Source: an uncultured Actinomycetes bacterium
GTDB lineage: Bacteria; Actinomycetota; UBA4738; JBBDTT01
Direction: 5' to 3'
Length of the DNA: 64,000 nt
Assembly: GCA_963742735.1 (NCBI GenBank)
Contig: CAVUMN010000003.1
Location: 224,001 to 288,000, forward strand
Each line of letters begins with the position of its first letter. Position 1 is the stretch's first letter. The notes under the pieces are model-generated. The model was given only the letters and a program-made list of their open reading frames with translations, made no database searches and was not told where the DNA came from. Below, piece by piece: positions 3,634 through 59,757 of the stretch. The translations under genes and the position numbers were made by a program.

Positions 3634-3654
3634 CGTCGTGCCTCCTCTGGGTGT

Positions 3655-27069: not shown

Positions 27070-27070
27070 C

Positions 27071-27661: not shown

Positions 27662-27760
27662 GCAGCGAAATCCCGAGCGGACCGTGCGACGAGTGCGGCC
27701 TCCCGTGGCCGTTCGTTTGCATAGCGTTCCCCCTCTATATTGCTCGCCCGCCGTACCCCG

Positions 27761-30079
27761 CTAGTCCACCCCGCTGGACACCGGCTCGGGCTTCGACGCC
27801 GGCGCACGGGTGCTCCCCTCCAGCGCGACGTGCGGAAGCAGGCGGTCCAGCCAGCCGGGCAGCCACCAGTTCCAGTCGCCCATCAGCCGCATCGTGGCCG
27901 GCACCAGGATCGTTCGGATCAAGGTGGCGTCCAGGAACACCGCCGTGGCCAGCCCGAAGCCCATCGCCTTGATCGGAACGAGCTCGGCGAACGCGAAGGC
28001 CCCGAACACCACGACCATGATCGCCGCGGCGCTGGTGATGATCCTCGCCGTGTGCTCCAGGCCCCACCCGACGGCCTCGGTGTTGTCCTTCGTCCGCAGG
28101 TACTCCTCGCGGATGCGGGCGAGCAGGAACACCTCGTAGTCCATGGACAGCCCGAACAGGGTGGTGAACAGGAACAGCGGCAGGAAGGCCTCGATGTGGC
28201 CCGAGGCCTGGAAGCCGAGCAGCCCCTCGAAGTGCCCGTCCTGGAACACGTACACCAGCACCCCGTAGGCGGCCAGCACCGACGCCAGGTTCATCAGGAT
28301 CGCCTTCAGCGGCAGCAGCAGCGACCGGAAGAACAGCATCAGCACCAGGAACGAGAGCAGCAGGACCAGACCGACCACCGGGATGAGCTTGTCGCCCATC
28401 TCCTCGGTCAGGTCCAGGTCCAGGCCCGGCTGCCCGCCGACCAGGACGGTCGAGCCCGCGCCGACGACGCCGGGGAGCCGGTCGCGGAGCCGGTTGATGA
28501 GCTGGTGCACGGTCTCCGACTGCGCCGAGTGCACCGTGACGGCCTGGATCTGCGTGGAGCGCCCGTCGGAGCTCACGAACTGGGCGAACAGCTGCCGGCC
28601 CTCGGGGGTGCCGAGCGCCTGCTCCGGCGTCGTTCCCGGCGGCAGGAGCGTCGTGATCGACGCCACCTGCAGGACCTCGGGGTCGGCCTGGGCGGCCTCG
28701 GAGACCGCGGCCACCTCCGCCAGTCCCTCGGACGAGGTCACCGGCTCCGAGGTCCGGAGCAGGATCACCGTGGGCTCGCCCTGGCCCTCGCCGAACGCCT
28801 CGGAGGCGATCTCGAACGCGCGGCGGGCGGGGTGGTCCGCCGGAAGGATCGAGGGGCCCGAGGAACCCAGGGCCAGGTTGCGCGCCGGCAGGGCCAGGAA
28901 CAGCAGCAGCCCCAGCGACAGGAGCAGGGCGGTCCACGGCCGCTTCATGACGGCCATGGCCCAGCGGTGCCAGTAGCGGCCCTCCTGCCGGTCCGCCCGG
29001 CGATGGATCGAGAACTTGTCGATGCGCTTGCCCACCCAGCCGAGGAGCGCGGGGAGCAGGGTGACCGCCGCGAGCGCGGCGATCGTGACCGCGATCATGG
29101 CGGCGACGCCCATCGTCCGGTAGGCCTGGATGTTGACCAGCAGCACGCCCGACAGCGCCACGACCACCGTGAGCCCCGAGACCAGCACGGCCTTCCCCGA
29201 GGTGGCCACGGCCTCGGCCACGGCCTCGCCGACCGACAGGCCCGACTTCAGCTCCGAGCGGAACCGGGCCAGGATGAACAGGGCGTAGTCGATCCCGACG
29301 CCGATCCCGATCATCGACGCCAGGTTCTGTGCGAAGACGTTGGTCTCGACGAACGTGGCGAACAGGCCGATGAGCGCGAACGAGATCATGAGGCTCATCA
29401 GGGCGAGGGCCAGCGGCATCCCCGCCGCGATCAGCGACCCGAGGGCGGCGATCAGGATCAGCAGCGCGATGGGGACGGCGATGCTCTCGGAGCGCTCCAG
29501 GTCGTGCTGGGTGATGTCCTGGAACGCGCGGTAGAAGGAGGGAGCGCCCGTGATCAGCACCTGGACGTCGTCGGTCGACGCCGCCTTCACGGCGGCCTCG
29601 AGATCCGGCGCGATCTCCAGGGCGTCGTCCTGCGTCCCGTCGACGTTGACGATGGAGGTCGCGACCGTCCCGTCCTTCGAGATCAGCTGGGCCGGGGCGT
29701 CGTACGGGCTGGCCGCGGAGGAGATGTGGTCCACCTGCAGCAGCCGGCGCAGGGTGTCCTGGACGACCGCCTGGTACTCGGGTTCCTGCGCCGTGCTCGT
29801 CTCCGAGGAGAACACGACGAGCGCCGTCAGCTCGGTCTGTCCCTCGAACTCGGTCTCCAGGGCCTGCCGGACCTGGTCCGACTGCGAGCCGGGCACCTCG
29901 AACCCGCCGTTGGACAGCCGCGACGTCAGCGAGCTCAGCATCGGGACCGACGCGAGCGTCGCCACCAGCCAGATCAGGATCATCACCCGGCGGTTGCGCA
30001 CGCCGAACATCGCGATGCGATAGATCAGGGTCTGCTCGACGGGCTTGGGTTGCTGGGCTCCGTTGCCGCTGCGCGCCAT
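27761..30079 (-). CDS. MMPL family RND transporter
   Basis: GIGVGIDYALF, SGKAVLVSG, FGLSMDYEVFL, DATLIRTILVPA.M.L.G.WNWW. Confidence 0.95.
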   Translation of the reverse strand: MARSGNGAQQPKPVEQTLIYRIAMFGVRNRRVMILIWLVATLASVPMLSSLTSRLSNGGFEVPGSQSDQVRQALETEFEGQTELTALVVFSSETSTAQEPEYQAVVQDTLRRLLQVDHISSAASPYDAPAQLISKDGTVATSIVNVDGTQDDALEIAPDLEAAVKAASTDDVQVLITGAPSFYRAFQDITQHDLERSESIAVPIALLILIAALGSLIAAGMPLALALMSLMISFALIGLFATFVETNVFAQNLASMIGIGVGIDYALFILARFRSELKSGLSVGEAVAEAVATSGKAVLVSGLTVVVALSGVLLVNIQAYRTMGVAAMIAVTIAALAAVTLLPALLGWVGKRIDKFSIHRRADRQEGRYWHRWAMAVMKRPWTALLLSLGLLLFLALPARNLALGSSGPSILPADHPARRAFEIASEAFGEGQGEPTVILLRTSEPVTSSEGLAEVAAVSEAAQADPEVLQVASITTLLPPGTTPEQALGTPEGRQLFAQFVSSDGRSTQIQAVTVHSAQSETVHQLINRLRDRLPGVVGAGSTVLVGGQPGLDLDLTEEMGDKLIPVVGLVLLLSFLVLMLFFRSLLLPLKAILMNLASVLAAYGVLVYVFQDGHFEGLLGFQASGHIEAFLPLFLFTTLFGLSMDYEVFLLARIREEYLRTKDNTEAVGWGLEHTARIITSAAAIMVVVFGAFAFAELVPIKAMGFGLATAVFLDATLIRTILVPATMRLMGDWNWWLPGWLDRLLPHVALEGSTRAPASKPEPVSSGVD

Positions 30080-37317: not shown

Positions 37318-37670
37318 CAGAAGGTCAGGCTCTGCGCGCCGTTGGCCAGATACTCGACGACGGTCGCCGCCCCCACGATCTCGGCGCCTTCGATGACCTC
37401 GGTGATCCCGCGGGGCTTCGTGCAGGCCTGGCAGGCCCAGACCTTGCCGCCGCCCTCGATGAACTCGCCGATCAGCTGCTTCAGGGGGGCCGCGGCGGGG
37501 TGCTCGACACCGTCGGCGCCGCCCTCGGTGACCAGGCGGACGGCCTCGATCGTCAGCATGATCGCGGCCTCCTGGCCGGTCACCAGGGCCATGTTCCCGA
37601 AGATGAACGGCAGCGTCGCCCGCTCGTGGTCCTCGGCGCCGTGTTGCCCATGGATCAGGATGCTCGCCAT
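37317..37670 (-). CDS. DsrE family protein
   Basis: [30 protein letters not shown]. Confidence 0.8.
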
Positions 37671-37930
37671 CAGGTCTCTCCTCGCGTGATGAGCCAGCGG
37701 TCGCCCTCGGACCCGCCCGCCGTGGTCGCCAGGGCGTGGCCCTTCAGCCGCGCCCAGGCCTCAAGGTTCGTCCGGCCCACCGGGTCGCGGGTCCGAACCT
37801 CCAGGGCCTGGCCCGCCTCGAGGGCGTCGAGCAGCGCGCCGATCTCCTTCAGGGTCGGGCCGCTGCACCCCTCGTCGCCGGCGTCGTAGAAGGCGTCCGC
37901 GTCGAGCTCGGGTTCCGGCACGCCGGTCAT
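37670..37930 (-). CDS. TusA/SirA family sulfur-carrier protein
   Basis: DAGDEGCSGP, GQALEVRTRDP, LEAWARLKGH. Confidence 0.8.
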   Translation of the reverse strand: MTGVPEPELDADAFYDAGDEGCSGPTLKEIGALLDALEAGQALEVRTRDPVGRTNLEAWARLKGHALATTAGGSEGDRWLITRGET

Positions 37931-37967
37931 CTTCGCAGAACGACCCGTCGCGTACGATCCGGGCCCT

Positions 37968-38864
37968 ATGTCCCCGCGAACGATCGGGCTGCTCGTTCTC
38001 GGCGTGGTCGCGGTCTCGTTCTCGGCCATCCTCATTCGCCTGACGGACGCGCCCCCGATGACCGTGGCGATGTACCGCAACGCCATCGCCGCGGCGATCC
38101 TGGTCCCGTTCGCGCTGGCCCGGCACCGACCCGAGCTGCGCTCGCTGAGCCGCCGCCAGTGGGGCCTGGCCGCCCTGGCCGGGGTGTTCCTGGCCGCGCA
38201 CTTCGCCACGTGGATCCCCTCGCTCGACTACACGACCGTCGCCGCGAGCACGGTCCTGGTCACCACCCAGCCCCTGTGGGTGGCCGCCATCGCCTACCTG
38301 GCATTCCGGGAACGGTTGAGCCGCGCGGCGGTCATCGGGATCCTGGTCGCGCTCAGCGGCACTGCGGTCGTCTCAGGGGGCGACGTGTCGCTGTCCGGCC
38401 GCGCCGTGTTCGGCGACATGCTGGCGCTCCTCGGAGCGGGACTGGCCGCCTGCTACTTCGTCATCGGGCGCGGGCTTCGACAGCAGATGTCGCTGCTGGC
38501 CTACGTGAGCGTCTGCTACACGGTGTGCGCCGTGGTGATGATCCCGGTCGTGGCCGCGTCGGGCCAGCCGTTCTTCGATCTCCGGTGGCAGGACTGGGGC
38601 CTGCTGGCCCTGATGGCCCTGGCCCCGCAGATCCTGGGGCACACGGTGTTCAACTACCTGCTGGGCGAGGTCGAGGCCACCGTGATCGCGATCGCGGTGA
38701 TGGGCGAGCCCGTCGGCGCGTCGCTGCTGGCGCTGGCGTTCTTCGGCGAGACGCCGCCGTGGACGGCCGCCGTCGGTGGCGCGCTCATCCTGACCGGCGT
38801 CTACGTGGCGATCACCGCGCAGGCCCGCCGCAACCGGGCGACCCTCCCGGCGCCGGTCGAGTGA
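37968..38864 (+). CDS. DMT/EamA family transporter
   Basis: About 10 TM segments, two EamA repeats, GEPVGASLLA. Confidence 0.92.
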   Translation: MSPRTIGLLVLGVVAVSFSAILIRLTDAPPMTVAMYRNAIAAAILVPFALARHRPELRSLSRRQWGLAALAGVFLAAHFATWIPSLDYTTVAASTVLVTTQPLWVAAIAYLAFRERLSRAAVIGILVALSGTAVVSGGDVSLSGRAVFGDMLALLGAGLAACYFVIGRGLRQQMSLLAYVSVCYTVCAVVMIPVVAASGQPFFDLRWQDWGLLALMALAPQILGHTVFNYLLGEVEATVIAIAVMGEPVGASLLALAFFGETPPWTAAVGGALILTGVYVAITAQARRNRATLPAPVE

Positions 38865-38888
38865 GCGACCCCGGATAAGCTTTCGGCC

Positions 38889-41018
38889 GTGGCGAAGCGC
38901 AAGGCCGCCGTCGACATCCGCGACGTCCAGGTCATCAAGCACGACCGGACGTTCCTGGTCACCGACGAGTGGGGCGACCTCCCCGAGGACAACACCGCCG
39001 CGCTCGGCCTCTACTACCGGGACACGCGCTACCTCTCCCGTTTCGAGCTGACCCTCGACGAGCTCCGGCCGCTCCTGCTGCACTCCTCGCCGGAGCGCAA
39101 CTACAACCAGATCATCGAGCTGGCGTTCCCGATCACCACGGTCTCGCCGGACGGGGACGAGGACAAGGACAACATCTCGATCTCCCGGAACCGTGTGATC
39201 GCCGATTCGCTCGTGGAGAAGATCGGCATCGCGAACTACGGACGCCAGGATCGAACGCTTCGCGTCTGCGTCGAGTTCGGCGCCGACTTCCTGGACCTCT
39301 TCGAGGTCCGTGGCTGGCCCCGCGAGCGCCGAGGACAGGTCCAGCCCACGGTCGTCGAGCGGAGCCACGTCGTCCTGTCCTACCGGGGGCTCGACGGGGT
39401 GGTTCGCACGACGACCATCCGGTTCTCGCCCCAGCCCGCCGAGCTCAGCGAGGACCGGGCGACGTTCGAGGTGGCCCTCGAGCCGCGCGAGCGGGCGGAG
39501 ATCGACCTGGAGATCACGCCGGCCGAGGGCTCGGAGGAGCGCACCCGGCTGCCGTTCCGCGAGGCCAAGGAGATGCTCGAGCGCGAGTACTCCTCGTGGC
39601 GCAAGAAGTGCACGCGGTTCAAGACCAGCCAGGTGCAGCTCTCCCAGTACCTCGACCGCTCGGTCCTGGACCTGCGGATGCTCCAGACGAACGACGAGGA
39701 CGGCGTGCCGTGGATCGACGCCGGCGTGCCCTGGTACTCGACGCTGTTCGGCCGCGACAGCCTGATCACCGCCTACGAGGTGCTCGGAGTGAACACCGAA
39801 CTGGCGTGGGGGACGCTGCGCGGGCTCGCTGCGCTCCAGGGCACGAAGGTCGACGAGTGGCGCGACGAGGAACCCGGCAAGATCCTGCACGAGGTTCGGG
39901 TGGGGGAGCTGGCGAAGGCCGGCGAGATCCCGCACACCCCGTACTACGGCTCGATCGACTCGACCCCGCTGTGGCTGGCGGTCCTGGCCAGCGCGTACTT
40001 CTGGACGAACGACGTGGACTCGGTGAAGGAGCTGTGGCCGAACGCGCTCGCGTGCCTGGAGTGGATCGACACCTACGGAGACGTCGACGGCGACGGCTAC
40101 GTGGAGTACGTCCGCAAGTCCGAGAAGGGCCTCGCGAACCAGGGCTGGAAGGACAGCCACGACGCGATCGTGTTCCCCGACCGCACCCTGGCCGAGGCGC
40201 CGATCGCCCTGGTCGAGGTCCAGGGCTACGTGTACCTGGCGAAGATCCGGATGGCCCGCCTCGCGCGCGACCTCGGCGAGACGGCCCTGGCCGACAAGCT
40301 CGACGGCGAGGCCAAGGACCTCAAGGAGCGGTTCAACAAGGACTTCTGGATGGACAAGGAGGGCTACTTCGCCCTCGCCCTGGATGGGAAGAAGCAGCAG
40401 GTGCCGGTCCTGGCGTCGAACGCCGGCCACTGCCTGTGGGCGGAGATCGTCGACGAGGACAAGGCCCCGCGAGTGGCCCGGCGGCTCCTGGGCACGGGAC
40501 TGTCGTCGGGGTGGGGGATCCGGACCCTCGGGATGCGCCAGACCCCGTACGACCCGATCGGCTACCACACCGGCACGGTGTGGCCGCACGACAACGCGCT
40601 GATCGCCCACGGCCTGAAGCGCTACGGCCTGGACCGCGAGGCGATGCAGGTCATCGACCAGATGTCGCTCGCCGGCGTGTACTTCCCCCTCGCGCGCTAC
40701 CCCGAGCTGTTCTGCGGCTTCGGGGCCGACCAGGTCCCGGTGCCGGTGCAGTACCCGGTGGCGTGCAGCCCGCAGGCGTGGGCGACCGGCGCGCCGTTCC
40801 TGATGCTCCGCTCCTACGGGGGGATCACCGCCGATGCTCCCAAGGGCGTGCTGAACCTGATCCGTCCCAACCTGCCGAAGTGGCTCCAGAGCATCGACGT
40901 GATCGGCATGCACGTCGGCGACACCCGCATCGACCTCTCCTTCACCCAGGCCGACGGCGTGACCGCCACCCAGGTTCCCCGCAAGGACGGCGAGCTCGAC
41001 GTGGTCATCCGCCACTAG
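38889..41018 (+). CDS. Amylo-alpha-1,6-glucosidase / glycogen debranching enzyme-like
   Basis: AGVPWYSTLFGRDSLI, EEPGKILHE, NQGWKDS, YHTGTVWPHDN, ACSPQAW. Confidence 0.92.
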   Translation: MAKRKAAVDIRDVQVIKHDRTFLVTDEWGDLPEDNTAALGLYYRDTRYLSRFELTLDELRPLLLHSSPERNYNQIIELAFPITTVSPDGDEDKDNISISRNRVIADSLVEKIGIANYGRQDRTLRVCVEFGADFLDLFEVRGWPRERRGQVQPTVVERSHVVLSYRGLDGVVRTTTIRFSPQPAELSEDRATFEVALEPRERAEIDLEITPAEGSEERTRLPFREAKEMLEREYSSWRKKCTRFKTSQVQLSQYLDRSVLDLRMLQTNDEDGVPWIDAGVPWYSTLFGRDSLITAYEVLGVNTELAWGTLRGLAALQGTKVDEWRDEEPGKILHEVRVGELAKAGEIPHTPYYGSIDSTPLWLAVLASAYFWTNDVDSVKELWPNALACLEWIDTYGDVDGDGYVEYVRKSEKGLANQGWKDSHDAIVFPDRTLAEAPIALVEVQGYVYLAKIRMARLARDLGETALADKLDGEAKDLKERFNKDFWMDKEGYFALALDGKKQQVPVLASNAGHCLWAEIVDEDKAPRVARRLLGTGLSSGWGIRTLGMRQTPYDPIGYHTGTVWPHDNALIAHGLKRYGLDREAMQVIDQMSLAGVYFPLARYPELFCGFGADQVPVPVQYPVACSPQAWATGAPFLMLRSYGGITADAPKGVLNLIRPNLPKWLQSIDVIGMHVGDTRIDLSFTQADGVTATQVPRKDGELDVVIRH

Positions 41019-41032
41019 CCGGTCGTACACTC

Positions 41033-41055
41033 CGTGCACACGTCAAAGGAGACAA
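41033..41055 (+). promoter_or_regulatory. Short leader with RBS, downstream of a TACACT -10 box, for the secreted-protein array
   Basis: TACACT at 41026-41031 and AAGGAG just before the ATG at 41056. Confidence 0.45.
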
Positions 41056-42315
41056 ATGCGCCCCCGCATCCTGTTCGTTCTGCTTGTCATCTCGCTGGCC
41101 ATCCCGCTCTTCCCGCGACCCGCCGGCGCCGCCTATCCGGGCTTCAACGGCCTGATCGCCTACATCGCGGACGGGGCCGTCTACGTGGTCGATCCGCTCG
41201 CCCCCCACCTGGGCGGCGACCCCCTGACCGGGGGATCGCCGGCCGACGAGACGCCCGTGTGGTCGCCCGACGGCTCCACCCTCGCCTTCACCCGAACCAG
41301 CCAGCTGTGGACCATGGACGCCGACGGCACCAACGAGGCCATGCTGCTGGCAGAGAGCCCACAGGGGATCACCTGGTCTCCGGATGGAGCGAAGCTCGCG
41401 TACGGCCGGAGCTCGCTTGGGCTGTACGTCGTGAACGCCAACGGGACCGGCTCGGTGCAGATCTCCTCCGACACCACCGCGCAGGAGCCCTCCTGGTCTG
41501 TGGGAAACCGAATCGTGTTCACCTCGTCGAGGGACGGAAACGCCGAGCTGTACGCCATCGATCCGGACGGCACCGACGAGGTCCGGCTGACGACGAACAC
41601 GACCACCGACCAGCAGGCGAACTGGTCGCCCGACGGGCTGAAGCTGGCGTTCGCCACGAACCGGGACGGAAACTTCGAGATCTACTCGATGAAGCCCGAC
41701 GGGACGCTGGTCAGCCGCCTGACGAACCGGTCCAACACCCAGACCGACCCGGCCTGGTCCCCGGACGGGCTGAAGATCACCTTCACGACCTCCACGGACC
41801 TGTGGAAGCAGATCGAGCAGATGAACAACAACGGTACGAACCAGACGACCCTGATCGACAACGGGACCGCCTCCTCGGAGAGCCAGCCAGACTGGCAGCC
41901 GCTCGCCCAGGAACCGCCTCCGGACGACTTCTTCGACCCCATATCGACGATCTCCCGGCCGAAGCAGGGCGTGTCCTATTACCAGGCCAACATCAAGGTC
42001 TTCAGCGGGACCGCGCGGGACGTGGGCGCGTCGGGGCTGGCCAGGGTCGAGGTCGCCCTCCGACGCGTTCTGACCGACGGGAACTGTCTGAGCTGGAACG
42101 GCAGCGTGTTCGTCAAGACGTCCTGCACGTTCAAGAACTGGCGGCTCGCCACCGGGAAGGCGGCGTGGACCTACACGCTGCCGAAGGGGCTCACCAAGAG
42201 CGTGGGCACAAACGTGAAGCACTACGTCCTGCTGTCACGGGCCACCGACGTGGCCGGCAACGTCGAGGTGACCTTCGGGGACGGCCGGAACCGAAACCGG
42301 TTCGAGGTGGTCTAG
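41056..42315 (+). CDS. Secreted PD40/TolB-like beta-propeller protein with conserved C-terminal domain (1 of 4)
   Basis: Signal peptide, AYPGFNGLIAY, repeated WSPDG; C-terminal RPKQGVSYYQ...GRNRNRFEVV. Confidence 0.9.
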   Translation: MRPRILFVLLVISLAIPLFPRPAGAAYPGFNGLIAYIADGAVYVVDPLAPHLGGDPLTGGSPADETPVWSPDGSTLAFTRTSQLWTMDADGTNEAMLLAESPQGITWSPDGAKLAYGRSSLGLYVVNANGTGSVQISSDTTAQEPSWSVGNRIVFTSSRDGNAELYAIDPDGTDEVRLTTNTTTDQQANWSPDGLKLAFATNRDGNFEIYSMKPDGTLVSRLTNRSNTQTDPAWSPDGLKITFTTSTDLWKQIEQMNNNGTNQTTLIDNGTASSESQPDWQPLAQEPPPDDFFDPISTISRPKQGVSYYQANIKVFSGTARDVGASGLARVEVALRRVLTDGNCLSWNGSVFVKTSCTFKNWRLATGKAAWTYTLPKGLTKSVGTNVKHYVLLSRATDVAGNVEVTFGDGRNRNRFEVV

Positions 42316-43611
42316 ATGCGCAGGTCGCTTACGTCCATGGCCGCCGCCCTACTGGCGGCCGTCCTGCTTCCGTCGCCGGCGCAGGCTGCGTTTCCCGGCC
42401 AGAACGGACTGGTCCTTTTCGTCCAGAGGGCCCCGAGCTCGAGCGAGGCCATCTACGTGATGAACGCCGACGGCACCGGCCGGACGCCGCTGACCGCCGA
42501 CGGCACCTTCCACGAGGACTTCGGGCCGGCGTTCTCGCCCGACGGGACGAGGATCGCGTTCGTGCGGAACCTCATGGCCCAGTCCGACGTGTGGGTCATG
42601 GACGCCGACGGCACCGGCGAGACGCGCCTCACGACCCTGCAGAACGTGGGCTCCGTGGCCTGGGCGCCGAGCGGCGCGGAGATCGTCTTCGACAACGCCC
42701 ACACGGTGGCCTCGACGTTCAACTACGACATCTACAAGGTCGCCGCAACGGGAGGAGCGCCGACGCAGCTGACGAACACCACCACGTGGGAGACGAACCC
42801 CTCGTGGGCGCCCGACGGCAGCAAGATCGCCTTCGAGCTCGGGTCGGAGATCCACACGATGGACCCGGACGGCACCGACGCGGCGAACACGGGCATCGAC
42901 GGGGTGGGGGTCGACTGGTCTCCCGACTCCCTGCGGTTCGCGTTCACGCTGGGCGGGCGGGTTCGGACGGCGAACATCAACGGGACGAACAACGTCGCGG
43001 TGACCTCCGGCTCGCACGACGAGGCCCCCGCCTGGTCTCCGGACGGCACGAAGATCCTGTTCATGCGCCAGTCCGCCAACGGCGTCAGCACCGACGTCTG
43101 GCAGATCACCTCGGACGGCGCCAACCCCGTGAACCTGACGGGGACTTCGGGAGGCATCCGCGAGCGCTACCCGAACTGGGGTCCGTGTCCCACGGGAGGA
43201 TGCACCACGCTTCCGTCGGACTCCGTCAAGCCGTCCTCCACGATCACGCGCCCCAAGAACGGCCTGAGCTACTACCAGAACAAGCTCCTGCAGTTCACCG
43301 GGACGGCGAGCGACACGGGAGGCTCCGGCCTGGCCCGGGTACAGATCGCCCTGCGCCGCTATCTCACCAACGGCACGTGCGCGAACTGGAACGGCTCGGT
43401 CTTCGTGGCCGCGTCGTGCACGACAGCGCTGTGGAAGGACGTCTCGGGGTGGACCTCCTGGGCGTACAACCTGCCGAAGGGCCTGACGAAGAGCACCGGC
43501 AGCTCGACCACGAAGCACTACCTCCTGTTCAGCCGCGCAATCGACGTGGAGGGCAACACCGAATCGCTGTTCACCAACGGCCGCAACCGCAACCAGTTCG
43601 AGGTGATCTAG
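42316..43611 (+). CDS. Secreted PD40/TolB-like beta-propeller protein with conserved C-terminal domain (2 of 4)
   Basis: Signal peptide, AFPGQNG, W[SA]PDG repeats; RPKNGLSYYQ...GRNRNQFEVI. Confidence 0.9.
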   Translation: MRRSLTSMAAALLAAVLLPSPAQAAFPGQNGLVLFVQRAPSSSEAIYVMNADGTGRTPLTADGTFHEDFGPAFSPDGTRIAFVRNLMAQSDVWVMDADGTGETRLTTLQNVGSVAWAPSGAEIVFDNAHTVASTFNYDIYKVAATGGAPTQLTNTTTWETNPSWAPDGSKIAFELGSEIHTMDPDGTDAANTGIDGVGVDWSPDSLRFAFTLGGRVRTANINGTNNVAVTSGSHDEAPAWSPDGTKILFMRQSANGVSTDVWQITSDGANPVNLTGTSGGIRERYPNWGPCPTGGCTTLPSDSVKPSSTITRPKNGLSYYQNKLLQFTGTASDTGGSGLARVQIALRRYLTNGTCANWNGSVFVAASCTTALWKDVSGWTSWAYNLPKGLTKSTGSSTTKHYLLFSRAIDVEGNTESLFTNGRNRNQFEVI

Positions 43612-43620
43612 CCGGATCGC

Positions 43621-43648
43621 TCAAGTTGGGTCCCGAACGCGCCGATGG
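43621..43648 (+). promoter_or_regulatory. Sigma-28/WhiG-like promoter, probably giving a leaderless mRNA
   Basis: TCAAG-N15-GCCGATGG, 7 nt before the ATG at 43656, no SD. Confidence 0.7.
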
Positions 43649-43655
43649 TTCAGAT

Positions 43656-44891
43656 ATGCGTCGTATCGCCCGCTTTAGCCTGCTCGCGCTCACCGCGGCG
43701 CTGATCCTGCCCGCCACGGCGACTCCCGCGCTCGCGGCGTACCCCGGCGAGAACGGCCTGATCGTGTATGTCAGCAATGGCGGTCTCTACACCACGCCCG
43801 CGATGTCCTGGAACATCGACGGCGAGTACCTCGCGGACGGTTTCGAGCCGTCCTGGTCGCCGGACGGGCAGCGCATCGTCTTCACCCGGGACGGCGGCGT
43901 CTGGGTCATGAACGCGAACGCCACCGGGCAGACGCGACTCACGCCCGGCAGCGGGGATTCCCCGAGCTGGTCCGGTGACGGAACCAGGATCGTCTACACG
44001 GCGTTCGACGGTCTCCACGTGATGGATGCGGACGGCACCGATGCCTCCTTCGTCCACGCGGACGCGGCCGCCGAGGATCCGGCGTGGTCGCCGGTCTCGA
44101 ACCAGATCGCGTTCTCCGCGCTCCGCGAAGGCAATCGAGAGATCGTCCGCGTCAACGCCGACGGCACCGGCGAGCTCCGGCTGACCACCCTCGCGGGGGC
44201 GGACATCGATCCCGACTGGTCGCCCGACGGGCTGAAGATCGCGTTCTCCTCCAGCTGGGACGGCGACGCGGAGATCCACACCATCAACCCCGATGGAACC
44301 GGGCTGCGGAACCTCACCGATGACTCCTCGGGAGACTTCAAGCCAGCCTGGTCCCCCGACGGGACCGAGATCGCGTTCACCCGCGGCGGACAGGTGTATC
44401 GAATGTTTGCCGACGGCACGTCACAGAGGATCGTCATCGAGTACTACGGCGCCTCGAGGAGCAGCCCCGACTGGCAGCCCGCCGCCGAGGAGGTCGTCAG
44501 GGAGTTCTTCCCGCCGAACACCCACGTCACCAGGCCGAGAAACGGCCTGTCCTACTACCAGGCGAACCTGCGGTCGATCACGGGGACCACCAACGACATC
44601 GGCGAGCATGGGGTCGAATTCGGGCAGGTCGCCCTGCGCCGGGTGTTCACCAACGGCACCTGCGCGAACTGGAACGGTTCGAAGTTCGTGATGGCCTCCT
44701 GCAAGGCCCGGCTGTGGAACACGGCCGTCGGCGCCCCGGGGTGGACGTACTCCATCTCGAAGCTGCTCACCCGAAGCCGGGGAACGAACGTGAAGCACTA
44801 CGTGGTCCTGGCCCGTGGCATCGATCGCGGGGGAAACATCGAAACGAACTTCGTGGATGGCCGAAACCGCAACTCCTTCGAGGTGATCTAG
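43656..44891 (+). CDS. Secreted PD40/TolB-like beta-propeller protein with conserved C-terminal domain (3 of 4)
   Basis: MRRIARFSLL... signal peptide, AYPGENG, WSPDG repeats; RPRNGLSYYQ...GRNRNSFEVI. Confidence 0.9.
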   Translation: MRRIARFSLLALTAALILPATATPALAAYPGENGLIVYVSNGGLYTTPAMSWNIDGEYLADGFEPSWSPDGQRIVFTRDGGVWVMNANATGQTRLTPGSGDSPSWSGDGTRIVYTAFDGLHVMDADGTDASFVHADAAAEDPAWSPVSNQIAFSALREGNREIVRVNADGTGELRLTTLAGADIDPDWSPDGLKIAFSSSWDGDAEIHTINPDGTGLRNLTDDSSGDFKPAWSPDGTEIAFTRGGQVYRMFADGTSQRIVIEYYGASRSSPDWQPAAEEVVREFFPPNTHVTRPRNGLSYYQANLRSITGTTNDIGEHGVEFGQVALRRVFTNGTCANWNGSKFVMASCKARLWNTAVGAPGWTYSISKLLTRSRGTNVKHYVVLARGIDRGGNIETNFVDGRNRNSFEVI

Positions 44892-44914
44892 CCATGCGTA
44901 GCTCCAACGAAGCA

Positions 44915-44943
44915 TTTACACGACGCGACGCATCCGCCACACT
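44915..44943 (+). promoter_or_regulatory. SigA-type promoter
   Basis: TTTACA-N17-CACACT upstream of the GTG at 44957. Confidence 0.5.
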
Positions 44944-44956
44944 CCCGCTACTTCCC

Positions 44957-46678
44957 GTGAACGCACACGCGAATCGCCCCAGTAGGCGCGCGCCCGCCGC
45001 CTTGATCACGCTCGTCCTGTTCGTCGCGCTGCTCGCGACGCCCGCCCAGGCCGCGCCCGCGGGCGAGTTGGACCCGACGTTCACGCTCGACGGTCGGGTC
45101 ATCACGTCGGTCGGGAACTCCATCGACCAGGCCAACGCGGTCGCGGTCCAGCCCGACGGCAGGATCGTGGCCGGCGGTGGGACCCTGTCCGCCGAGTGCG
45201 GAGTGAGCGGCTGCGACACCCACTGGGCCCTCCTGCGCTACCAGTCCAACGGCTTCCTCGACCCGAACTTCGGCGGGGGCGACGGCATCGTCACCACCGA
45301 CATGGGCTCCGGCTCGATCTACGACATCGCGATTCAGGGCGACGGCAAAATCGTCGCCGTGGGCGACGGCTTCGAGGGCGTCGAGAACGACTTCGTGGTC
45401 GCTCGGTACCTGGCCAACGGCACCCCCGACTCCAACTTCGGCTCGGGAGGGATCGTCCGGACCGACTTCGGGCTGCACGACGCCGCGAGCGCCGTGGCCA
45501 TCAACCCCGACGGTACGATCGTGGTCGCCGGCTCACAGGGCCTCGCGGCCCCGGCCTTCAACAGCACGTTCGCCCTCGCCCGGTACCTGACGACCGGCCT
45601 CCCCGACACGACGTTCGACGGCGACGGCAAGGCCGTGACGATCATCGGCACCGAGACCAGCTTCGCGAACGACGTGGCGCTCCAGGGCGGCAAGCCGGTC
45701 GCGGTCGGGGCGAGCCGCGACGCCGGCGGAGACATGATCTTCACGACCGTCCGCTACACGACGGGCGGCCTCCCCGACACGACCTTCGACGGCGACGGCA
45801 TCGCCCTGAAGGGGTTCGGCACGGGGCCCGACACCGCCACCTCGGTCCTGATCGATCCGGCCGGCAAGATCGTGGTGGCCGGCTCGGCCGTGATCGGCAC
45901 CGAGTTCGACTTCGCCGCGGTCAGGTATCTCAGCACGGGGCCGCCCGACACCACCTTCGACATCGACGGGTTCCGCACCGTGGACATCACCGGCGACGAC
46001 GTGGCCCAGGGCCTGGTTCGCCAGGCCGACGGAGCGCTCGTGCTGGGCGGGGTGACGGGCTCCGGGGAGAGCACCGACTTCGCGCTGGTCCGACTGACGT
46101 CCGCCGGCGCGCTCGACCCCTCGTGGGGCGGCAACGGGAGGGTCACCACGGACTTCCTGGAGAGCGCCGACTCCGCCGCCGCCATCGCCCTGCAGCCCGA
46201 CGGAAAGCTCGTCGCGGCCGGGGCGGTGTTCGACCCGTTCATCGCCGAGACCGACGTCGCCCTCGCCCGCTACCTCACGGTGGGGACCGGGGACACCACG
46301 GTCCCGGTCTCGCGGATCTCCCGGCCGAAGAACGGCCTGAGCTACTACCAGGCCAACATCAAGACGTTCTCGGGGACCGCCACCGATACCGCGTCCGGGG
46401 TGGCCAAGGTCGAGATCGCGCTGCGCCGCCACTTCACCAACGGGCTGTGCGCGAACTGGAACGGAAGCGTGTTCGTGTCGGGTTCCTGCACCACCCCGAC
46501 GTGGCGCCTGGCGACGGGACGTGGGAGCTGGACCTACTCGCTCCCGAAGGGGCTGACGAAGAGCCGGGGGACCAACGTGGCCTACTACGTCCTGTTCTCG
46601 CGGGCGACCGACGCGGAGGGGAACGTCGAGTCGTCGTTCGCCACCGGACGCAACCGCAACCAGTTCGAGGTGATCTAG
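44957..46678 (+). CDS. Secreted delta-60-repeat beta-propeller protein with conserved C-terminal domain (4 of 4)
   Basis: Repeats of QPDGKIVAAG...ALARY...G.LD.TF..DG; RPKNGLSYYQ...GRNRNQFEVI; alternative ATG at 44894. Confidence 0.88.
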   Translation: MNAHANRPSRRAPAALITLVLFVALLATPAQAAPAGELDPTFTLDGRVITSVGNSIDQANAVAVQPDGRIVAGGGTLSAECGVSGCDTHWALLRYQSNGFLDPNFGGGDGIVTTDMGSGSIYDIAIQGDGKIVAVGDGFEGVENDFVVARYLANGTPDSNFGSGGIVRTDFGLHDAASAVAINPDGTIVVAGSQGLAAPAFNSTFALARYLTTGLPDTTFDGDGKAVTIIGTETSFANDVALQGGKPVAVGASRDAGGDMIFTTVRYTTGGLPDTTFDGDGIALKGFGTGPDTATSVLIDPAGKIVVAGSAVIGTEFDFAAVRYLSTGPPDTTFDIDGFRTVDITGDDVAQGLVRQADGALVLGGVTGSGESTDFALVRLTSAGALDPSWGGNGRVTTDFLESADSAAAIALQPDGKLVAAGAVFDPFIAETDVALARYLTVGTGDTTVPVSRISRPKNGLSYYQANIKTFSGTATDTASGVAKVEIALRRHFTNGLCANWNGSVFVSGSCTTPTWRLATGRGSWTYSLPKGLTKSRGTNVAYYVLFSRATDAEGNVESSFATGRNRNQFEVI

Positions 46679-46905
46679 ACCTCGTAGCCCAGAACGATCA
46701 GCGACGCCGTCCCCAGGCGGGTCAGGCGTCCGTCGTCCCCGAAGCCGAGCAGGAACTCGACGTGGGGTGACACGCCGCCGTGCCGGAGCTCTCGCAGTCC
46801 GTCGCGCAACGCGCGCACGGCGTCCCAGGGGTGGCCGGGCGTCACGGGGGCGATGAGGATCCCCGATGGGGTGTCCGCGAGTGTGCGGGCATTCGTGCCG
46901 CTCAC
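46675..46905 (-). CDS. Small hypothetical protein
   Basis: AAGGAG RBS before GTG; 76 aa; stop overlaps the convergent gene's stop. Confidence 0.5.
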   Translation of the reverse strand: MSGTNARTLADTPSGILIAPVTPGHPWDAVRALRDGLRELRHGGVSPHVEFLLGFGDDGRLTRLGTASLIVLGYEV

Positions 46906-46998
46906 CGGCGGGCTCCTTTCGCGGTTCGAGTGAGGCGCGGTCTCCCAACGTTTCGACGCACCTCGTCGCCTATCCTTGTCGCGGTCCGAAATTGCCGG

Positions 46999-47014
46999 TG
47001 TGACGCCGGTCACG
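46999..47014. promoter_or_regulatory. CRP/GlxR-type binding site
   Basis: TGTGA-CGCCGG-TCACG in the divergent intergenic region upstream of the acyl-CoA dehydrogenase. Confidence 0.65.
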
Positions 47015-47031
47015 ATCCTGAACGGAGACCC

Positions 47032-48183
47032 ATGGACTTCGAGCTCAGCCCCGAGCAGGAGATGGTCCGCAAGACCGCCCGGGAGTGGGTGGACAAGGAG
47101 GTGATCCCCCGGGCGCGCGACGCCGACCGCGAGGAGGCCCTCGATCCCGAGGTCATCCGCCAGCTCGGCGAGCTCGGCTTCCTGGGCGCCGTCATCCCGG
47201 AGGAGTACGGGGGGATGGGCCTGGACAACCTGTCCTACTGCCTGATCATCGAGGAGCTCGGCCGCGGCGACTCCAGCGTTCGAGGCGTGGTCTCGGTGAA
47301 CGTCGGGCTCGTCGGCAAGACGATCTACAAGTGGGGGACCGAGGCGCAGAAACGGGAATGGCTTCCGCGTCTTGCCTCCGGTGAGGCCCTCGGCTGCTAC
47401 GGCCTGACCGAGCCGGAGGTCGGCTCCGACGCCGGGAACCTCACCTCACGCGCGAAGCGCGACGGCGATGACTGGATCCTGTCCGGCGAGAAGCTGTTCA
47501 TCACCAACGGCAACACCGCGAAGCTGGCGATGATCTTCGCCCGCACCGGCGGCGAGGGCCCAAAGGGGATCTCCGCGTTCCTCGTTCCCACGGACCTGGA
47601 GGGCTTCTCCTCGACCTACGTGAAGGGCAAGCTCGGCCTGCGTGCCCAGGACACCGGCGCCCTACACCTGGACGGCGTCCGGGTTCCCGACTCGGCCCGA
47701 CTGGGCGAGGAGGGTGAAGGCTTCAGGATCGCGATGTCGGCCCTCGACGGCGGGCGGATGTCCCTCGCCGCCGGCTGCGTCGGGATCGCCCAGGGCTCGC
47801 TCGAGGCGAGCATCGCCTACGCGAAGGAGCGCCACGCCTTCGGCAAGCCGATCGCCGCCTTCCAGCTGGTCCAGGAGCTCATCGCCGACACCGCCGTCGA
47901 GACCGACGCCGCCCGGCTGCTGGTGTGGCGGGTCGCGACCATGGCGGACGCCGGAAAGACCCACACCCTGGAGTCGAGCTACGCGAAGTACTTCGCCAGC
48001 GAGACCGCCGTGCGGGCCGCGAACGCGGCGGTCCAGGTCCACGGCGGGTTCGGCTACGTGGACGAGTACCCGGTCGGCAAGTACCTGCGCGACGCGCGCG
48101 TCACCACCCTCTACGAGGGAACCAGCCAGATCCAGAAGCTGATCATCGGCCGCGCCCTCACCGGCGAGTCCGCGTTCGCGTAA
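47032..48183 (+). CDS. Acyl-CoA dehydrogenase
   Basis: GLTEPEVGSD, GEKLFITNG, FGKPIAAFQ, QVHGGFGY, LYEGTSQIQ. Confidence 0.95.
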   Translation: MDFELSPEQEMVRKTAREWVDKEVIPRARDADREEALDPEVIRQLGELGFLGAVIPEEYGGMGLDNLSYCLIIEELGRGDSSVRGVVSVNVGLVGKTIYKWGTEAQKREWLPRLASGEALGCYGLTEPEVGSDAGNLTSRAKRDGDDWILSGEKLFITNGNTAKLAMIFARTGGEGPKGISAFLVPTDLEGFSSTYVKGKLGLRAQDTGALHLDGVRVPDSARLGEEGEGFRIAMSALDGGRMSLAAGCVGIAQGSLEASIAYAKERHAFGKPIAAFQLVQELIADTAVETDAARLLVWRVATMADAGKTHTLESSYAKYFASETAVRAANAAVQVHGGFGYVDEYPVGKYLRDARVTTLYEGTSQIQKLIIGRALTGESAFA

Positions 48184-48186: not shown

Positions 48187-49584
48187 TCAGGGACAGGCCG
48201 GCTCGCCGGTGGTTCCGACGCACGTCCGGTCGTGGTCGAGCTGCGCCTCGATCGCGTCGGTGTTCGGGTCGTTGGCCGTCGAGGCGTCGCCGAGCAGGTT
48301 CAGGTTCTGCCAGGGATCGCTCGTGAGGTTGTAGTACTCGCGTTCGATGATCGTGGTTCCGTCGAGCGCGTAATACTCGACGTACTGGTAGGTCGGCGTC
48401 CGGATCGAAGCCCAGGTCGGCGTCCCCACCGGATCGTTCGTCCCCGCCTGCCAGTACTCGGTCAGGATCCGAGTGCGGGCGAAGCTTCCCAGGAGCGGCC
48501 GGCCGTCGATGGGTCTGCTCGGATCCGGGTCGATCCCGGCCAGGTCCAGGATGGTGGGCATGATGTCCGCGATCGCCACGATGCGCGAGTCTTTCGCGCC
48601 CCGGGCGATGCCCCGGCTGGGCCCCCACATGTAGAAGGGGACCTTTATGGAGTTGGAGTACGGCTGCGACTTCCCGGTGATGCCGTGTTCGCGCCACATG
48701 AACCCGTTGTCCGAGAGATAGAAGACGATCGTCCTGCCGGCTTCGCCGAACCGGTTCATCTGGGTGAACGCGTTCTCCACCAGGTCGTCCACGGACATCA
48801 GGGTGCGAAGCTGGTTGACCCGCGTGGTCTTCAGCGTGCTGAGCGGGACGTATCGGTCCTGCACGTACTGGGGTTTGTCCGAGCGGTCGGTCTCGTTGAC
48901 CGCGGGGTTGGCGAAGAACGGCCCCACCGACGACTTGGCGTAGGCGCCCTTCGGCTGCTGCGGGTAGTGGGGGGCGAACGGCGTCATCATGAGGAACCAC
49001 GGCCGCGAGTCGTTGCCCTCGGCCACCTCCAGGAACGGCCCGATGCGCGAGGAGAGGTAGTCGGTGCTGTACCCGCCGGGCTTGATGATGGCGCCGTTGC
49101 TGTTGTAGGTGACACCCCAGTACCCCGGCTCGGGGGTGAAGATCGCCCACCGGTCGAAGTACGGCGGGTCGTCGTTGATGTCCCACCGGTTCAGGTACTT
49201 GCCGAAAATCCCGTTCCAGTAGCCGTTGTCGTGCAGGTACTTCTGGAGCGTGTCGCCCTGGTCGAGCGACGTGGCGTCCCCGTTCGTGCGCACGCCGGTG
49301 TTGTGGGCGTACTGGCCCGTCATGAGCGAGGCGCGCGACGGGCAGCACAGGGGCGTCGTGGCGTACGCCTGTGTGAACTCGGTCCCGGCTTTCACGAAGC
49401 GCCCGGTCACCTCGGGCATCACGCCGAGCGTGCCCGGGGTCCGCTGATCGTCGGTCATGATGATCAGGATGTTGGGCTGGTCGAGCGCCTGCGCGCGCGC
49501 GGCGCGGTCGGCGGGCGGCAGCAGCGTGGCCGAGGCGATCAGCAGGGATACGGCCAAGAGACGGAAAGCGGGCTTGGGGGGCAT
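48187..49584 (-). CDS. Secreted Cys-type (formylglycine) sulfatase
   Basis: Signal peptide, PNILIIMTDDQ, LCCPSRASLMTG, GKYLN, SDNG. Confidence 0.93.
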   Translation of the reverse strand: MPPKPAFRLLAVSLLIASATLLPPADRAARAQALDQPNILIIMTDDQRTPGTLGVMPEVTGRFVKAGTEFTQAYATTPLCCPSRASLMTGQYAHNTGVRTNGDATSLDQGDTLQKYLHDNGYWNGIFGKYLNRWDINDDPPYFDRWAIFTPEPGYWGVTYNSNGAIIKPGGYSTDYLSSRIGPFLEVAEGNDSRPWFLMMTPFAPHYPQQPKGAYAKSSVGPFFANPAVNETDRSDKPQYVQDRYVPLSTLKTTRVNQLRTLMSVDDLVENAFTQMNRFGEAGRTIVFYLSDNGFMWREHGITGKSQPYSNSIKVPFYMWGPSRGIARGAKDSRIVAIADIMPTILDLAGIDPDPSRPIDGRPLLGSFARTRILTEYWQAGTNDPVGTPTWASIRTPTYQYVEYYALDGTTIIEREYYNLTSDPWQNLNLLGDASTANDPNTDAIEAQLDHDRTCVGTTGEPACP

Positions 49585-58407: not shown

Positions 58408-59757
58408 CTAGTGGTCGCTCTTGCCGGTGAAGTTGAAGCCGCCGATCTTCAGGGCGGGAACGCGCGACGCCGCGAAGAAGAACTCGCTGGCCAGCTCGGC
58501 CTCGGCCCCGATCATCTCGGTGTTGGTGAGGGCCTCCAGGATCGACTGCGTGAACCGCAGGTTCTTGACCGGGTAGGCCACCTGGCCGTTCTCGATCATC
58601 CACGTGCCGTCGCGAGTCATGCCCGTGATGATCGCCTCCCGCGGGTGCACGATGTTCGAGTAGTGGAACCGTGTCACGAGCAGGCCGCGCTCGGTCGCGG
58701 CGATCATCTGCTCGAGCGTCGAGTCGCCCGGGGCGACGACAACGTTCAAGGGGAAGGGCCCCTCCGGGTTCGGCGGGGGGAGGGCATGGCCGGTGGACTC
58801 TGTGTCGGCCAGCGTTCCCGAGCGGCGGTCGTGGACCCCGCCCAGCGCCACTCCGTCGGTGATCAGGTCCACGCGCCGCTTCGGGGTGCCCTCGAAGTCG
58901 AACGGTATCCCCAGGGCGTCCGGCGCCAGCGCGTCGTCGTAGATGTCGATCGAGGGCGACACGACCTGCTCCCCGATCCGGCCCGAGAAGCAGGACCGGC
59001 CCTCGATGATCTGACGGCCCCCGAACCCGAGCCACCCAAGGAACGCGATCAGCGTCGAGACCGCGAGGGGCTCGAGGACGACGTCGTAGCGGCCGAGGTC
59101 CAGGTCGCGCGGGTTCGTGCTGTCCCGGGCCTTCTGCGCCGCGCGTTCGCCGACGAACTCGCGGTCGAGGTCGGCGGGGGACCGGCCGAATGCCTCGGCG
59201 TATCCGGCCCCGCCGTCGGGGCCCGACATCAGCACGCTGATGCTCGCCTGGGTTCCGGGGTGGTAGCAGAACTGCCCCTCGGTGTTGGCGAGGGCCACCT
59301 CGACGCACTGGGTCTCGTACGCGCCGGCGCCCTCCAGGCCGCCGGTCGCGTGGGCCATGATCTGGGCGACCTCCTCGGCCTGCTGCGCCGGCGACATCGA
59401 TGCCGCCGCCTCCTCGAAGCCGTCGATCTCGGGGTAGGCCGCCTTGGGCGCCAGGCCCGGGAAGGCCGGGTCGGGCGCCACCACCTGGGCGATCTCGAGC
59501 GCGTCGCGCGTGGCCCGGACGGCGCCCTCCTTCGAGAGGTCGTTGGTCGAGGCCACGCCCACGCGGCCCTCCACGACCACCCGCACCTTGACGCCGGTGT
59601 CCTCCCGCCACGTGTTCTGGTGGATGGCCGAGCGAGCGAATCGCGTCAGCCCGCCCCACTCGTGGATGGCCAGCACCTCGACGTCCTCGGGTCCCTTGAC
59701 CTCCAGCGCGGCGCCCATCAGGTCGCGGAGGTCGTCGGCGCCGATCAGGCCGGGCAT
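58408..59757 (-). CDS. pmbA: PmbA/TldE family protein
   Basis: LTRFARSAIHQN, PFDFEG, TGMTRDG, VKNLRFTQ; no HExxGH motif; TGATG coupling to tldD. Confidence 0.85.
   Translation of the reverse strand: MPGLIGADDLRDLMGAALEVKGPEDVEVLAIHEWGGLTRFARSAIHQNTWREDTGVKVRVVVEGRVGVASTNDLSKEGAVRATRDALEIAQVVAPDPAFPGLAPKAAYPEIDGFEEAAASMSPAQQAEEVAQIMAHATGGLEGAGAYETQCVEVALANTEGQFCYHPGTQASISVLMSGPDGGAGYAEAFGRSPADLDREFVGERAAQKARDSTNPRDLDLGRYDVVLEPLAVSTLIAFLGWLGFGGRQIIEGRSCFSGRIGEQVVSPSIDIYDDALAPDALGIPFDFEGTPKRRVDLITDGVALGGVHDRRSGTLADTESTGHALPPPNPEGPFPLNVVVAPGDSTLEQMIAATERGLLVTRFHYSNIVHPREAIITGMTRDGTWMIENGQVAYPVKNLRFTQSILEALTNTEMIGAEAELASEFFFAASRVPALKIGGFNFTGKSDH

Follow-up and report, generated by a model that had tools for sequence, protein, structure and literature searches.

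The DNA analysed here is a 64 kb stretch (the window) of a contig from an uncultured Actinomycetes bacterium, and the four genes under study, g1–g4, span positions 41056–46678 on its plus strand. Each encodes a secreted protein in which a β-propeller passenger is followed by the same terminal Ig-like module. g1 (41056–42315; 419 aa), g2 (42316–43611; 431 aa) and g3 (43656–44891; 411 aa) carry propellers of the PD40/TolB-like kind, and g4 (44894–46678; 594 aa) carries a delta-60-repeat (DUF5122) propeller, all lengths being those of the open reading frame (ORF) translations. An earlier note on this DNA (the original prediction) had read the locus as four consecutive signal-peptide proteins with these two kinds of passenger and one common C-terminal module. 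Pfam and NCBIfam models bear out the division into three PD40/TolB-like passengers and one delta-60 passenger, and the hidden Markov model (HMM) of the module places its starts within 6–15 nt of those given before.

The gaps between the genes are 0 nt (g1/g2), 44 nt (g2/g3) and 2 nt (g3/g4), with the ATG of g2 directly abutting the stop codon of g1, and an AAGGAG sequence lies 7 nt 5' of the g1 ATG; g1–g4 are probably co-transcribed. A scan of positions 37500–47500 for promoters and terminators gave counts at the level of shuffled sequence and defined no transcription unit, and Rfam and tRNA scans of the whole window returned no matches. The true start of g4 may be a later GTG, as in its homologue P0005, and the 594 aa form is also present in the public protein set. 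Signal peptides were judged by eye from the sequence. All four N-termini combine a basic n-region, a hydrophobic h-region and an AxA-type site (AGA, AQA or ALA), followed by AYPG, AFPG or APAG; the signal peptide of g1 comprises residues 1–25, and residues 1–28 of g2 have predicted local distance difference test (pLDDT) values below 50 in its full-length AlphaFold2 (AF2) model. As judged by these sequence features, g1–g4 encode Sec-type secreted proteins.

The passengers of g1–g3 match PD40 at 88–97 bits (g1, 87.8 bits) and the TolB propeller model TIGR02800 at 113–133 bits (g1, 129.5 bits). The latter scores lie below the equivalog cut-off of 343 and the match is limited to the propeller part, so that g1–g3 do not qualify as TolB proteins of the Tol-Pal system. 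The g4 passenger scores 250.2 bits against TIGR02608 (cut-off 76.5) in seven stretches, which places it in the delta-60 family, and 141.5 bits against DUF5122. In the full-length AF2 model of g2 (pLDDT 81.7, predicted template-modelling score (pTM) 0.62) the propeller and the module are each confidently predicted, and linker residues 293–295 and 297–302 have pLDDT values below 50, which suggests that the module is tethered to the propeller rather than packed on it. The g2 propeller superposes on TolB (4pwz) with an E-value of 2e-18 and a root-mean-square deviation (rmsd) of 2.8 Å over 272 columns; this Foldseek superposition covers the propeller only, about 272 of 431 residues.

The terminal modules occupy residues 290–419 of g1 (41923–42312), 300–431 of g2 (43213–43608), 281–411 of g3 (44496–44888) and 465–594 of g4 (46286–46675), all on the plus strand, with HMM scores of 244.7, 237.7, 239.2 and 235.4 bits, respectively. 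When every ORF of 60 aa or more, in any of the six frames of the window, was searched with the family profile, exactly four matched (E 5e-54 to 7e-45) and no fifth module appeared; since the matches are confined to these four ORFs, the shared module is not due to chance. The four-module alignment has 136 columns, 51 of them invariant, with 52–68% identity to g1, and bears out the original prediction in its consensus, its Cys pair and its end at FEV[IV] followed by the stop codon. Its statement that the module is basic is likewise accurate: isoelectric points (pI) range from 9.7 to 10.4 and net charges from +7 to +9 (g1, 9.9 and +8, with 2 Cys; g2, 9.7 and +7; g3, 10.4 and +9; g4, 10.0 and +8). 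The 27 nt reported as identical at the ends of g2 and g4 extend to 30 nt. Passenger identity within g1–g3 is 37–42%, and the g4 passenger aligns to these at 23–27% in forced alignments, with no real similarity; at 52–68% identity the module is thus better conserved than its PD40 carriers. We used identities alone, as dN/dS across the four paralogues was uninformative, with a GC content at third codon positions of ~0.9 and compressed dS.

What kind of domain is this? The original prediction called it unrecognised, which is correct insofar as no Pfam or NCBIfam model names it or reaches its cut-off on any of the four modules; the fold, on the other hand, is known. Based on the comparisons below, we conclude that the module is a diverged bacterial Ig-like domain of the Big_7/Big_13 type, with an ordinary fold rather than a new one. 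Scanned singly, the g2 and g4 modules score 21.7 and 21.1 bits against Big_7 (PF17957; cut-off 24.1 bits), over profile positions 1–39 of 70, and those of g1 and g3 give no Pfam match at E≤10. The window modules therefore fall short of the Pfam Big_7 family as such, and belong to the Big_7/Big_13 superfamily by homology and by their Ig-like β-sandwich fold. The sole NCBIfam match to the module, OmpL47, is at chance level (E 0.02). Among 60 related single-copy proteins, Big_7 matches at E≤1e-3 in ten, and three of these reach its cut-off (P0017, 27.0 bits; P0025, 24.4 bits; P0060, 25.2 bits).

The four-module profile was searched against 1.84 billion cluster representatives, of which 1332 matched at E≤1e-3, 551 at 1e-10 and 66 at 1e-30. 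Homologues were re-scored from the best 150 of the 1332 representatives together with earlier matches (156 proteins, 155 matched), and these separate into 91 multi-copy (array) proteins and 64 single-copy proteins. The multi-copy proteins are ~460–7700 aa long, with 5–42 matched stretches per array protein; P0090 (459 aa), counted among the 91, is one terminal copy split in two. In nine of ten array proteins examined with Pfam, the repeats coincide with Big_7, Big_13, Big_3_2/3/4 or related Ig families (P0033 has none). The module profile matches residues 237–335 of P0010 (independent E-value 1.6e-11), overlapping Pfam Big_7 at 241–322, and residues 846–950 of P0012 (1.1e-14), overlapping Big_13 at 909–960. 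An hhalign comparison between 61 terminal modules and 30 repeats (from four proteins with Big_7 as their only or main Pfam family) gave 99.75% probability and an E-value of 3.3e-27 over 104 columns at 39% identity, and its gaps coincide exactly with the two Cys positions of the terminal modules. Homologous full-length copies thus occur internally, in the arrays of giant adhesin-like proteins, which goes part of the way towards the objection raised in advance against a docking domain, namely that it would prove to be a Big or FN3 family also found within proteins.

The same core residues recur in 520 array repeats: P9 (97%), P16 (97%), G32 (98%), D36 (84%), W60 (81%), G62 (82%), W84 (86%) and F129 (96% of those aligned). 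The YxxxxRAxDxxGN element, which had been likened to bacterial Ig-like folds, is indeed an Ig-like signature, with Y103, R108, D111 and N115 present in 95, 70, 99 and 92% of internal repeats. Big_7/Big_13/Big_3_x arrays (PF17957/PF19077) and the module accordingly agree in full-domain homology, in the Ig-like sandwich and in a common signature that includes P..S.I..P, GTA.D, WxG, W.Y, Y....RA.D..GN.E and ..N.F.

The AF2 model of the g4 module, built on a 61-row alignment, is confident (pLDDT 96.9, pTM 0.90) and all-β, with ten strands. Its Foldseek matches in the PDB are solely generic Ig-like sandwiches, with a best E-value of 1.3e-4 and query-normalised TM-scores (TMq) of at most 0.54. Ten matches reach E≤1e-3, those listed being Ig-like domains, either from SrpA and adhesins related to it or from sulfite dehydrogenases. 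More broadly, the matches include the Siglec-type domains of SrpA, Hsa and GspB (E 1e-4 to 3e-3), the Ig-like dimerisation domain found in sulfite oxidases/dehydrogenases (E between 4e-4 and 3e-3; best TMq 0.54), CopC, a porphyran-binding carbohydrate-binding module (CBM; 8wae, E 2e-3) and the B1 domain of CelAly (9kvu, target-normalised TM-score 0.66). A PDB sequence search with the four-module profile returned nothing significant (best 3pdd_A, E 0.043). In the ESM Atlas, the stand-alone homologue P0148 scores at most 0.84, values that serve as leads only, and its nearest clusters are annotated "Bacterial Ig domain-containing protein" and Big_7/Big_13/Big_3_2.

The model also bears on how the module could work. 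The original prediction proposed docking through the terminal FEV[IV] strand, and here it was mistaken: FEV[IV] forms strand E126–131, the domain's own last β-strand (pLDDT ~98 for the last blocks), and has an internal counterpart, in that 42 array repeats align to position 129 or beyond, many of them reading "..G.SSNTFxYD", to whose "..NTFxYD" part it is homologous. We therefore rejected docking by a free FEV[IV] tail.

Within this superfamily, the terminal modules form a distinct and so far unnamed subfamily of Big_7/Big_13-type Ig repeats. Against the module profile, the 64 single-copy proteins score 94.5–244.7 bits per domain (median 112), compared with a median of 18.7 and a maximum of 50.7 bits for 756 array domains when the split P0090 copy (65.9) is set aside. 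The module lies within 5 aa of the C-terminus in 59 of the 64 (tails of 6–24 aa in the other five), and no internal copy occurs among these 64. The last-strand pattern G[RQ]N.x.F[ED][VIA] gave 59 matches in 193 proteins, 57 of them within five residues of the end, and the strand GRNxNxFE[VI] is conserved (R124, 95%; N125, 100%; E130, 82%). All 64 terminal modules have at least two Cys (exactly two in 59), versus 53 of 638 array repeats; at the two columns concerned, Cys is present in 100% of terminal modules and ~1% of array repeats. The pair sits in two small insertions flanking the β-hairpin 57–60/65–68, and presumably forms a disulfide outside the cell.

The charge of the subfamily differs as sharply. 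Module pI has a median of 9.9 and exceeds 8.5 in 56 of 64 modules, 62 of which are net positive, whereas array repeats have a median pI of 4.5, with 8% above 8.5. The basic residues are concentrated at columns 15, 49, 73, 101 and 124, where Lys or Arg is found in 84, 92, 74, 71 and 95% of terminal modules and in 9, 38, 5, 26 and 21% of array repeats. The passengers are very acidic (median pI 4.1; below 6 in 58 of 60). In short, the arrays are acidic, many-copy, internal and without the Cys pair, and the module is single, terminal, basic and Cys-paired, with per-domain scores at least twice as high.

The module is not restricted to the local duplication, as at least seven passenger types in other organisms carry it. 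Among the 60 non-window proteins, the passengers are Calx-beta (27), delta-60 (10), PD40 (6), cupredoxin (2), one each of β-helix/NosD, FG-GAP and a VWA + PKD + InlB-B-like combination, and one weak CAP match, with 11 lacking a named family. Two proteins, P0148 (160 aa) and P0157 (198 aa), consist of a signal peptide and the module only. An N-terminal h-region is present in 52 of the 64; the remaining 12 start without Met or look truncated. In a maximum-likelihood tree built from 61 modules, those on PD40 and those on delta-60 passengers are interspersed with one another, with strong support for 6 of 58 branches only, and the g1 (PD40) module clusters with that of g4/P0005 (delta-60) at an approximate likelihood-ratio (SH-aLRT) support of 89, which suggests exchange of modules between passengers.

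Public names follow the passenger ("uncharacterized delta-60 repeat protein", "TolB protein", "Calx-beta domain-containing protein" or "hypothetical"). Of the word-indexed protein searches, one gave seven matches (three being the window's own), another gave two, of 71–238 aa, and a third gave 52; no source reached by them had a name for the module. The subfamily is undescribed in the literature searched, a limited search that is no proof of its being unpublished. The Ig fold and the repeat family are thus known, and what is new is the basic, Cys-paired terminal subfamily, which merits a family model but does not amount to a novel type of system. As a separate observation, the Calx-beta proteins, the most frequent carriers (P0052, P0059, P0067, P0094 and others), share a conserved block, [FH]H[LM]xKIxE[VI]F, just after the signal peptide; it matches no Pfam model at E≤1e-3, and we take it to resemble a lamin-tail-like domain.

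Homology to spacer-type Ig repeats is unambiguous, the last strand belongs to the fold, and neither the window nor eight related loci revealed a partner gene. Together these are what one would expect if the module were a passive structural cap, an end domain derived from adhesin repeats that stabilises or spaces the passenger and whose charge offsets the acidic cargo. We consider such a cap quite unlikely, given that the module is better conserved (52–68%) than its carriers (37–42%), that basic residues were gained at specific positions along with a presumed disulfide, that the domain is strictly terminal and single-copy on unrelated cargoes, that secreted copies stand alone, and that the linker looks flexible, so that the module is not packed on its passenger. 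If the module were no more than a cap, it would be an ordinary Ig-domain subfamily, worth a database entry at most.

We compared g1–g4 with known anchors. No LPxTG-like motif lies near any C-terminus, in agreement with the original prediction (two regular-expression matches in g3 fall in the signal peptide); the proteins end at FEV[IV] and are not LPXTG-type sortase substrates. Models of the SLH, LysM, GW/SH3_8, CWB, WxL and PEP-CTERM types in Pfam and NCBIfam have no match at E≤1 in the four proteins, and no transmembrane segment offers an alternative anchor on them.

Based on these observations, we propose, at about even odds, that the module is a non-covalent surface-retention domain of an electrostatic or lectin-like kind. 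After Sec export, the module would fold and be oxidised outside the cell, and the cationic domain would hold its acidic cargo at the cell surface non-covalently. The predicted ligand is an anionic envelope polymer (a wall-linked secondary polymer, a lipoglycan or similar), which would be contacted through charge and perhaps in a lectin-like manner. Tandem paralogues that share or exchange the module would in this way display different propellers side by side. Other Gram-positives have C-terminal anchoring regions of comparable function (WxL, GW or S-layer), and the module would not be a cleavable sorting signal. We prefer anchoring because: (i) the module is the sole candidate anchor on these proteins; (ii) module and passenger contrast extremely in charge, in a way peculiar to this subfamily; (iii) terminal placement, many cargoes, stand-alone forms and clustering parallel the WxL domain; and (iv) the AF2 model excludes a free-tail or donor-strand mechanism.

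Among known systems, GW modules and the C-terminal regions of Lactobacillus S-layer proteins are cationic and hold proteins non-covalently on anionic wall polymers. They differ from the module in having unrelated folds and no sequence match to it. The ligand of SH3-8/GW domains is given as "PG and/or LTAs", that is, peptidoglycan and/or lipoteichoic acids, in one account (PMC5817068). In the same account, the WxL domain (PF13731) is described as the last ~120–190 residues of Sec-secreted proteins, with two conserved Trp-x-Leu motifs that include a distal YxxxLTWxLxxxP, as binding peptidoglycan non-covalently, and as encoded in gene clusters thought to build surface complexes (PMC5817068). The module resembles WxL in position, size, gene clustering and the lack of a covalent anchor. 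WxL proteins are surface proteins of Lactobacillales and Bacillales, whose phylum is another than that of the hosts studied here. Nor does the module qualify as a WxL domain: Pfam gives no match, and W-R-L occurs in the g1 and g4 modules only and is not conserved.

The nearest analogue of the g2 architecture in the PDB is an archaeal surface-layer fragment, 1l0q (a tandem YVTN β-propeller with a PKD domain), in which a propeller is likewise followed by an Ig-like domain. It ranks 23rd (E 9e-12) among the Foldseek matches of the full-length g2 model, but is archaeal, has a PKD instead of a Big_7-like domain, and superposes poorly overall (rmsd 19 Å, TMq 0.41).

A folded β-sandwich at the extreme C-terminus of unrelated cargoes, with several copies per genome, also recalls the C-terminal domain of the type IX secretion system (T9SS), an Ig-like sandwich that ends many secreted cargoes. 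The module could, by this comparison, be a true sorting signal, recognised by a dedicated export or attachment machine and possibly cleaved or covalently processed; its strictly C-terminal position on many cargo types, the several paralogues per genome, the conserved polar residues of the last strand (R124, N125, E130) and the sandwich fold itself would all fit. Yet the hosts are Actinomycetota metagenome-assembled genomes (MAGs) and not Bacteroidota, and no T9SS machinery genes were seen in the 64 kb window or in the eight short MAG loci with related modules described below. T9SS sorting-domain models have no match at E≤1 in the four proteins or at E≤10 in the modules alone, and the other sorting models, PEP-CTERM and LPXTG included, likewise give nothing at E≤1. 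Furthermore, no conserved gene for such a machine neighbours the modules in the window or the eight loci, Sec signal peptides are already present, the host is probably monoderm with no second membrane to cross, copies without cargo exist, and the last strand is an ancestral trait of the repeats. We judge a true sorting signal highly improbable. The original prediction of an anchoring or sorting system therefore divides: anchoring fits the contrast between basic module and acidic passenger, but no conserved partner gene turned up in either the window or the eight loci, and a dedicated sorting system is not supported. As something of a long shot, the module might be the address tag of an undescribed display pathway in uncultured, presumably monoderm Actinomycetota, with an unlinked, dedicated receptor or processing enzyme. 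It would then be the functional equivalent of a T9SS C-terminal domain or a sortase signal, and its HMM would delimit all the proteins that these lineages display.

The charge and position that we take to hint at wall retention would equally fit proteins that are released and whose basic Ig-like domain binds an external anionic polymer in the manner of a CBM, candidates being acidic or sulfated polysaccharide, humic matter and extracellular DNA. Glycan-binding Siglec-type domains, the porphyran-binding CBM and the CelAly B1 domain among the Foldseek matches point in this direction, as do the stand-alone secreted copies and the secreted-looking sulfatases and a glycoside hydrolase nearby in the window. 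The passengers, however, are non-catalytic (propellers, Calx-beta, cupredoxins) rather than polymer-degrading enzymes, and with TMq ≤0.54 the structural resemblance is a generic one; moreover, the hydrolase next to g1 has no signal peptide, and gene neighbourhoods vary between loci. We regard external binding as unlikely.

Alternatively, the module might be an assembly domain that drives homo- or hetero-oligomerisation of the co-encoded paralogues into a complex or lattice. Tandem genes at gaps of 0, 44 and 2 nt with one common module would suit this, as would the match to the dimerisation domain of sulfite oxidases/dehydrogenases; the precomputed Pfam annotation of some array proteins also lists PF03404, which we take to be the Mo-co dimerisation domain. 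The surface complexes that WxL clusters are thought to form (PMC5817068) would offer a precedent. Like-charged modules (+7 to +9) would be expected to repel one another, and four related loci (L001, L002, L003 and L007) hold a single module gene, which together make assembly very unlikely in our estimation.

Several points weigh against surface retention, the reading that we prefer. First, the anchoring step is argued from charge, from position and from the fact that no other anchor was found in the sequences; plain release of the proteins into the medium would be a simple alternative. Second, no known wall-binding module appears among the Foldseek matches listed (ranks up to 49), all with TMq ≤0.54, and neither the window nor the eight related loci show a conserved neighbour that might synthesise or carry a ligand. 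Third, the pI is 8.5 or lower in 8 of the 64 modules, and the well-supported branches of the module tree are few (6/58). Finally, the score gap between terminal modules and array repeats may in part be an effect of listing, as the lower bound of 94.5 bits was set by the best 150 of 1332 representatives, and the subfamily may have further, lower-scoring members beyond those 150, whether single-copy or internal.

Were wall retention nonetheless correct, the module would give Solirubrobacterales-like and other uncultured Actinomycetota their first proposed means of surface anchoring, in proteins on which the usual anchors (LPXTG, SLH, WxL, LysM) are not seen. One small HMM would then flag displayed proteins with propellers, Calx-beta, cupredoxin or β-helix domains, and an adhesin spacer repeat would have become an anchor by means of two Cys-bearing insertions and about five basic substitutions.

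The occurrence of the module was examined in a scan of 185,579 GTDB species representatives. With the 12 closest modules (patterns GRNR[NS]xFEV[IV] and [FLY]T[DN]GxC[AL][NS]WN), the scan gave 20 pattern matches and no relatives, so that the lineage of the window is either missing from these representatives or masked. With the Calx-beta branch (pattern GRNAN[RT]FE[VI]) it gave eight loci, all in uncultured Actinomycetota MAGs, one of them labelled Solirubrobacterales. One MAG holds three module copies on two contigs and another holds two. Apart from the four single-gene loci, adjacent pairs of module genes are present in L006 and L008, which look syntenic, and two adjacent Calx-beta genes in L004 are a probable pair.

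Neighbouring genes vary. Those of the related loci encode aldehyde dehydrogenases, regulators and transporters, with RTX-repeat secreted proteins in three (L005, 521–2230; L006, 2227–5319; L008, 3421–5037; including LVIVD + RTX and M28 peptidase + PKD + RTX architectures). In the window, g1–g4 are flanked by genes for a GDE-like glycoside hydrolase, an EamA transporter, an acyl-CoA dehydrogenase and a sulfatase, and neither here nor in the eight loci does a sortase-like or other partner candidate stand beside the module genes. The glycoside hydrolase (GDE_N_bis + MGH1-like; 38889–41018, plus strand), which has no signal peptide, has its end 37 nt 5' of g1; although its function is unrelated, it may be transcribed together with g1–g4. 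The sulfatase (48187–49584, minus strand) has a signal-peptide-like N-terminus and lies ~1.5 kb downstream of g4, past the acyl-CoA dehydrogenase gene; a second sulfatase, represented by a cut-off C-terminal domain, is found at the start of the window (25–417, plus strand).

A Tad/Flp pilus locus occupies positions 473–6109 on the minus strand, ~35 kb from g1–g4, and encodes a T2SSF-family protein (473–1357), a TadA-type ATPase (2281–3633), a CpaE-like ParA ATPase (3655–4905), RcpC/CpaB (4905–5648) and a TadE-like protein (5645–6109). The original prediction named the Tad pilus as a possible attachment site. We rejected this link in view of the 35 kb distance and the opposite strand, and because no Tad gene adjoins the module genes in the eight loci.

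The window also includes MMPL and luciferase-like monooxygenase genes and has a GC content of 66–73% over most of its length, all of which, together with the Tad genes, is in keeping with the Actinomycetota. In the stretch 26001–28000 it falls to 0.609 (0.66–0.73 in the rest of the window), and two ORFs there, 26290–27069 and 27071–27661, have no Pfam match at E≤1e-4; this stretch may be foreign or non-coding. The ORF at 58408–61254 (minus strand; 948 aa) has PmbA/TldD domains only at residues 526–944; either its N-terminal 500 residues are without a Pfam match or its start codon was over-called. Finally, two proteins of 622 and 549 aa (counted from the first start codon), encoded at 8946–10814 (minus strand) and 20259–21908 (plus strand), match only the DyP_N dimeric α+β barrel, and exceed the usual length of dye-decolorising peroxidases.

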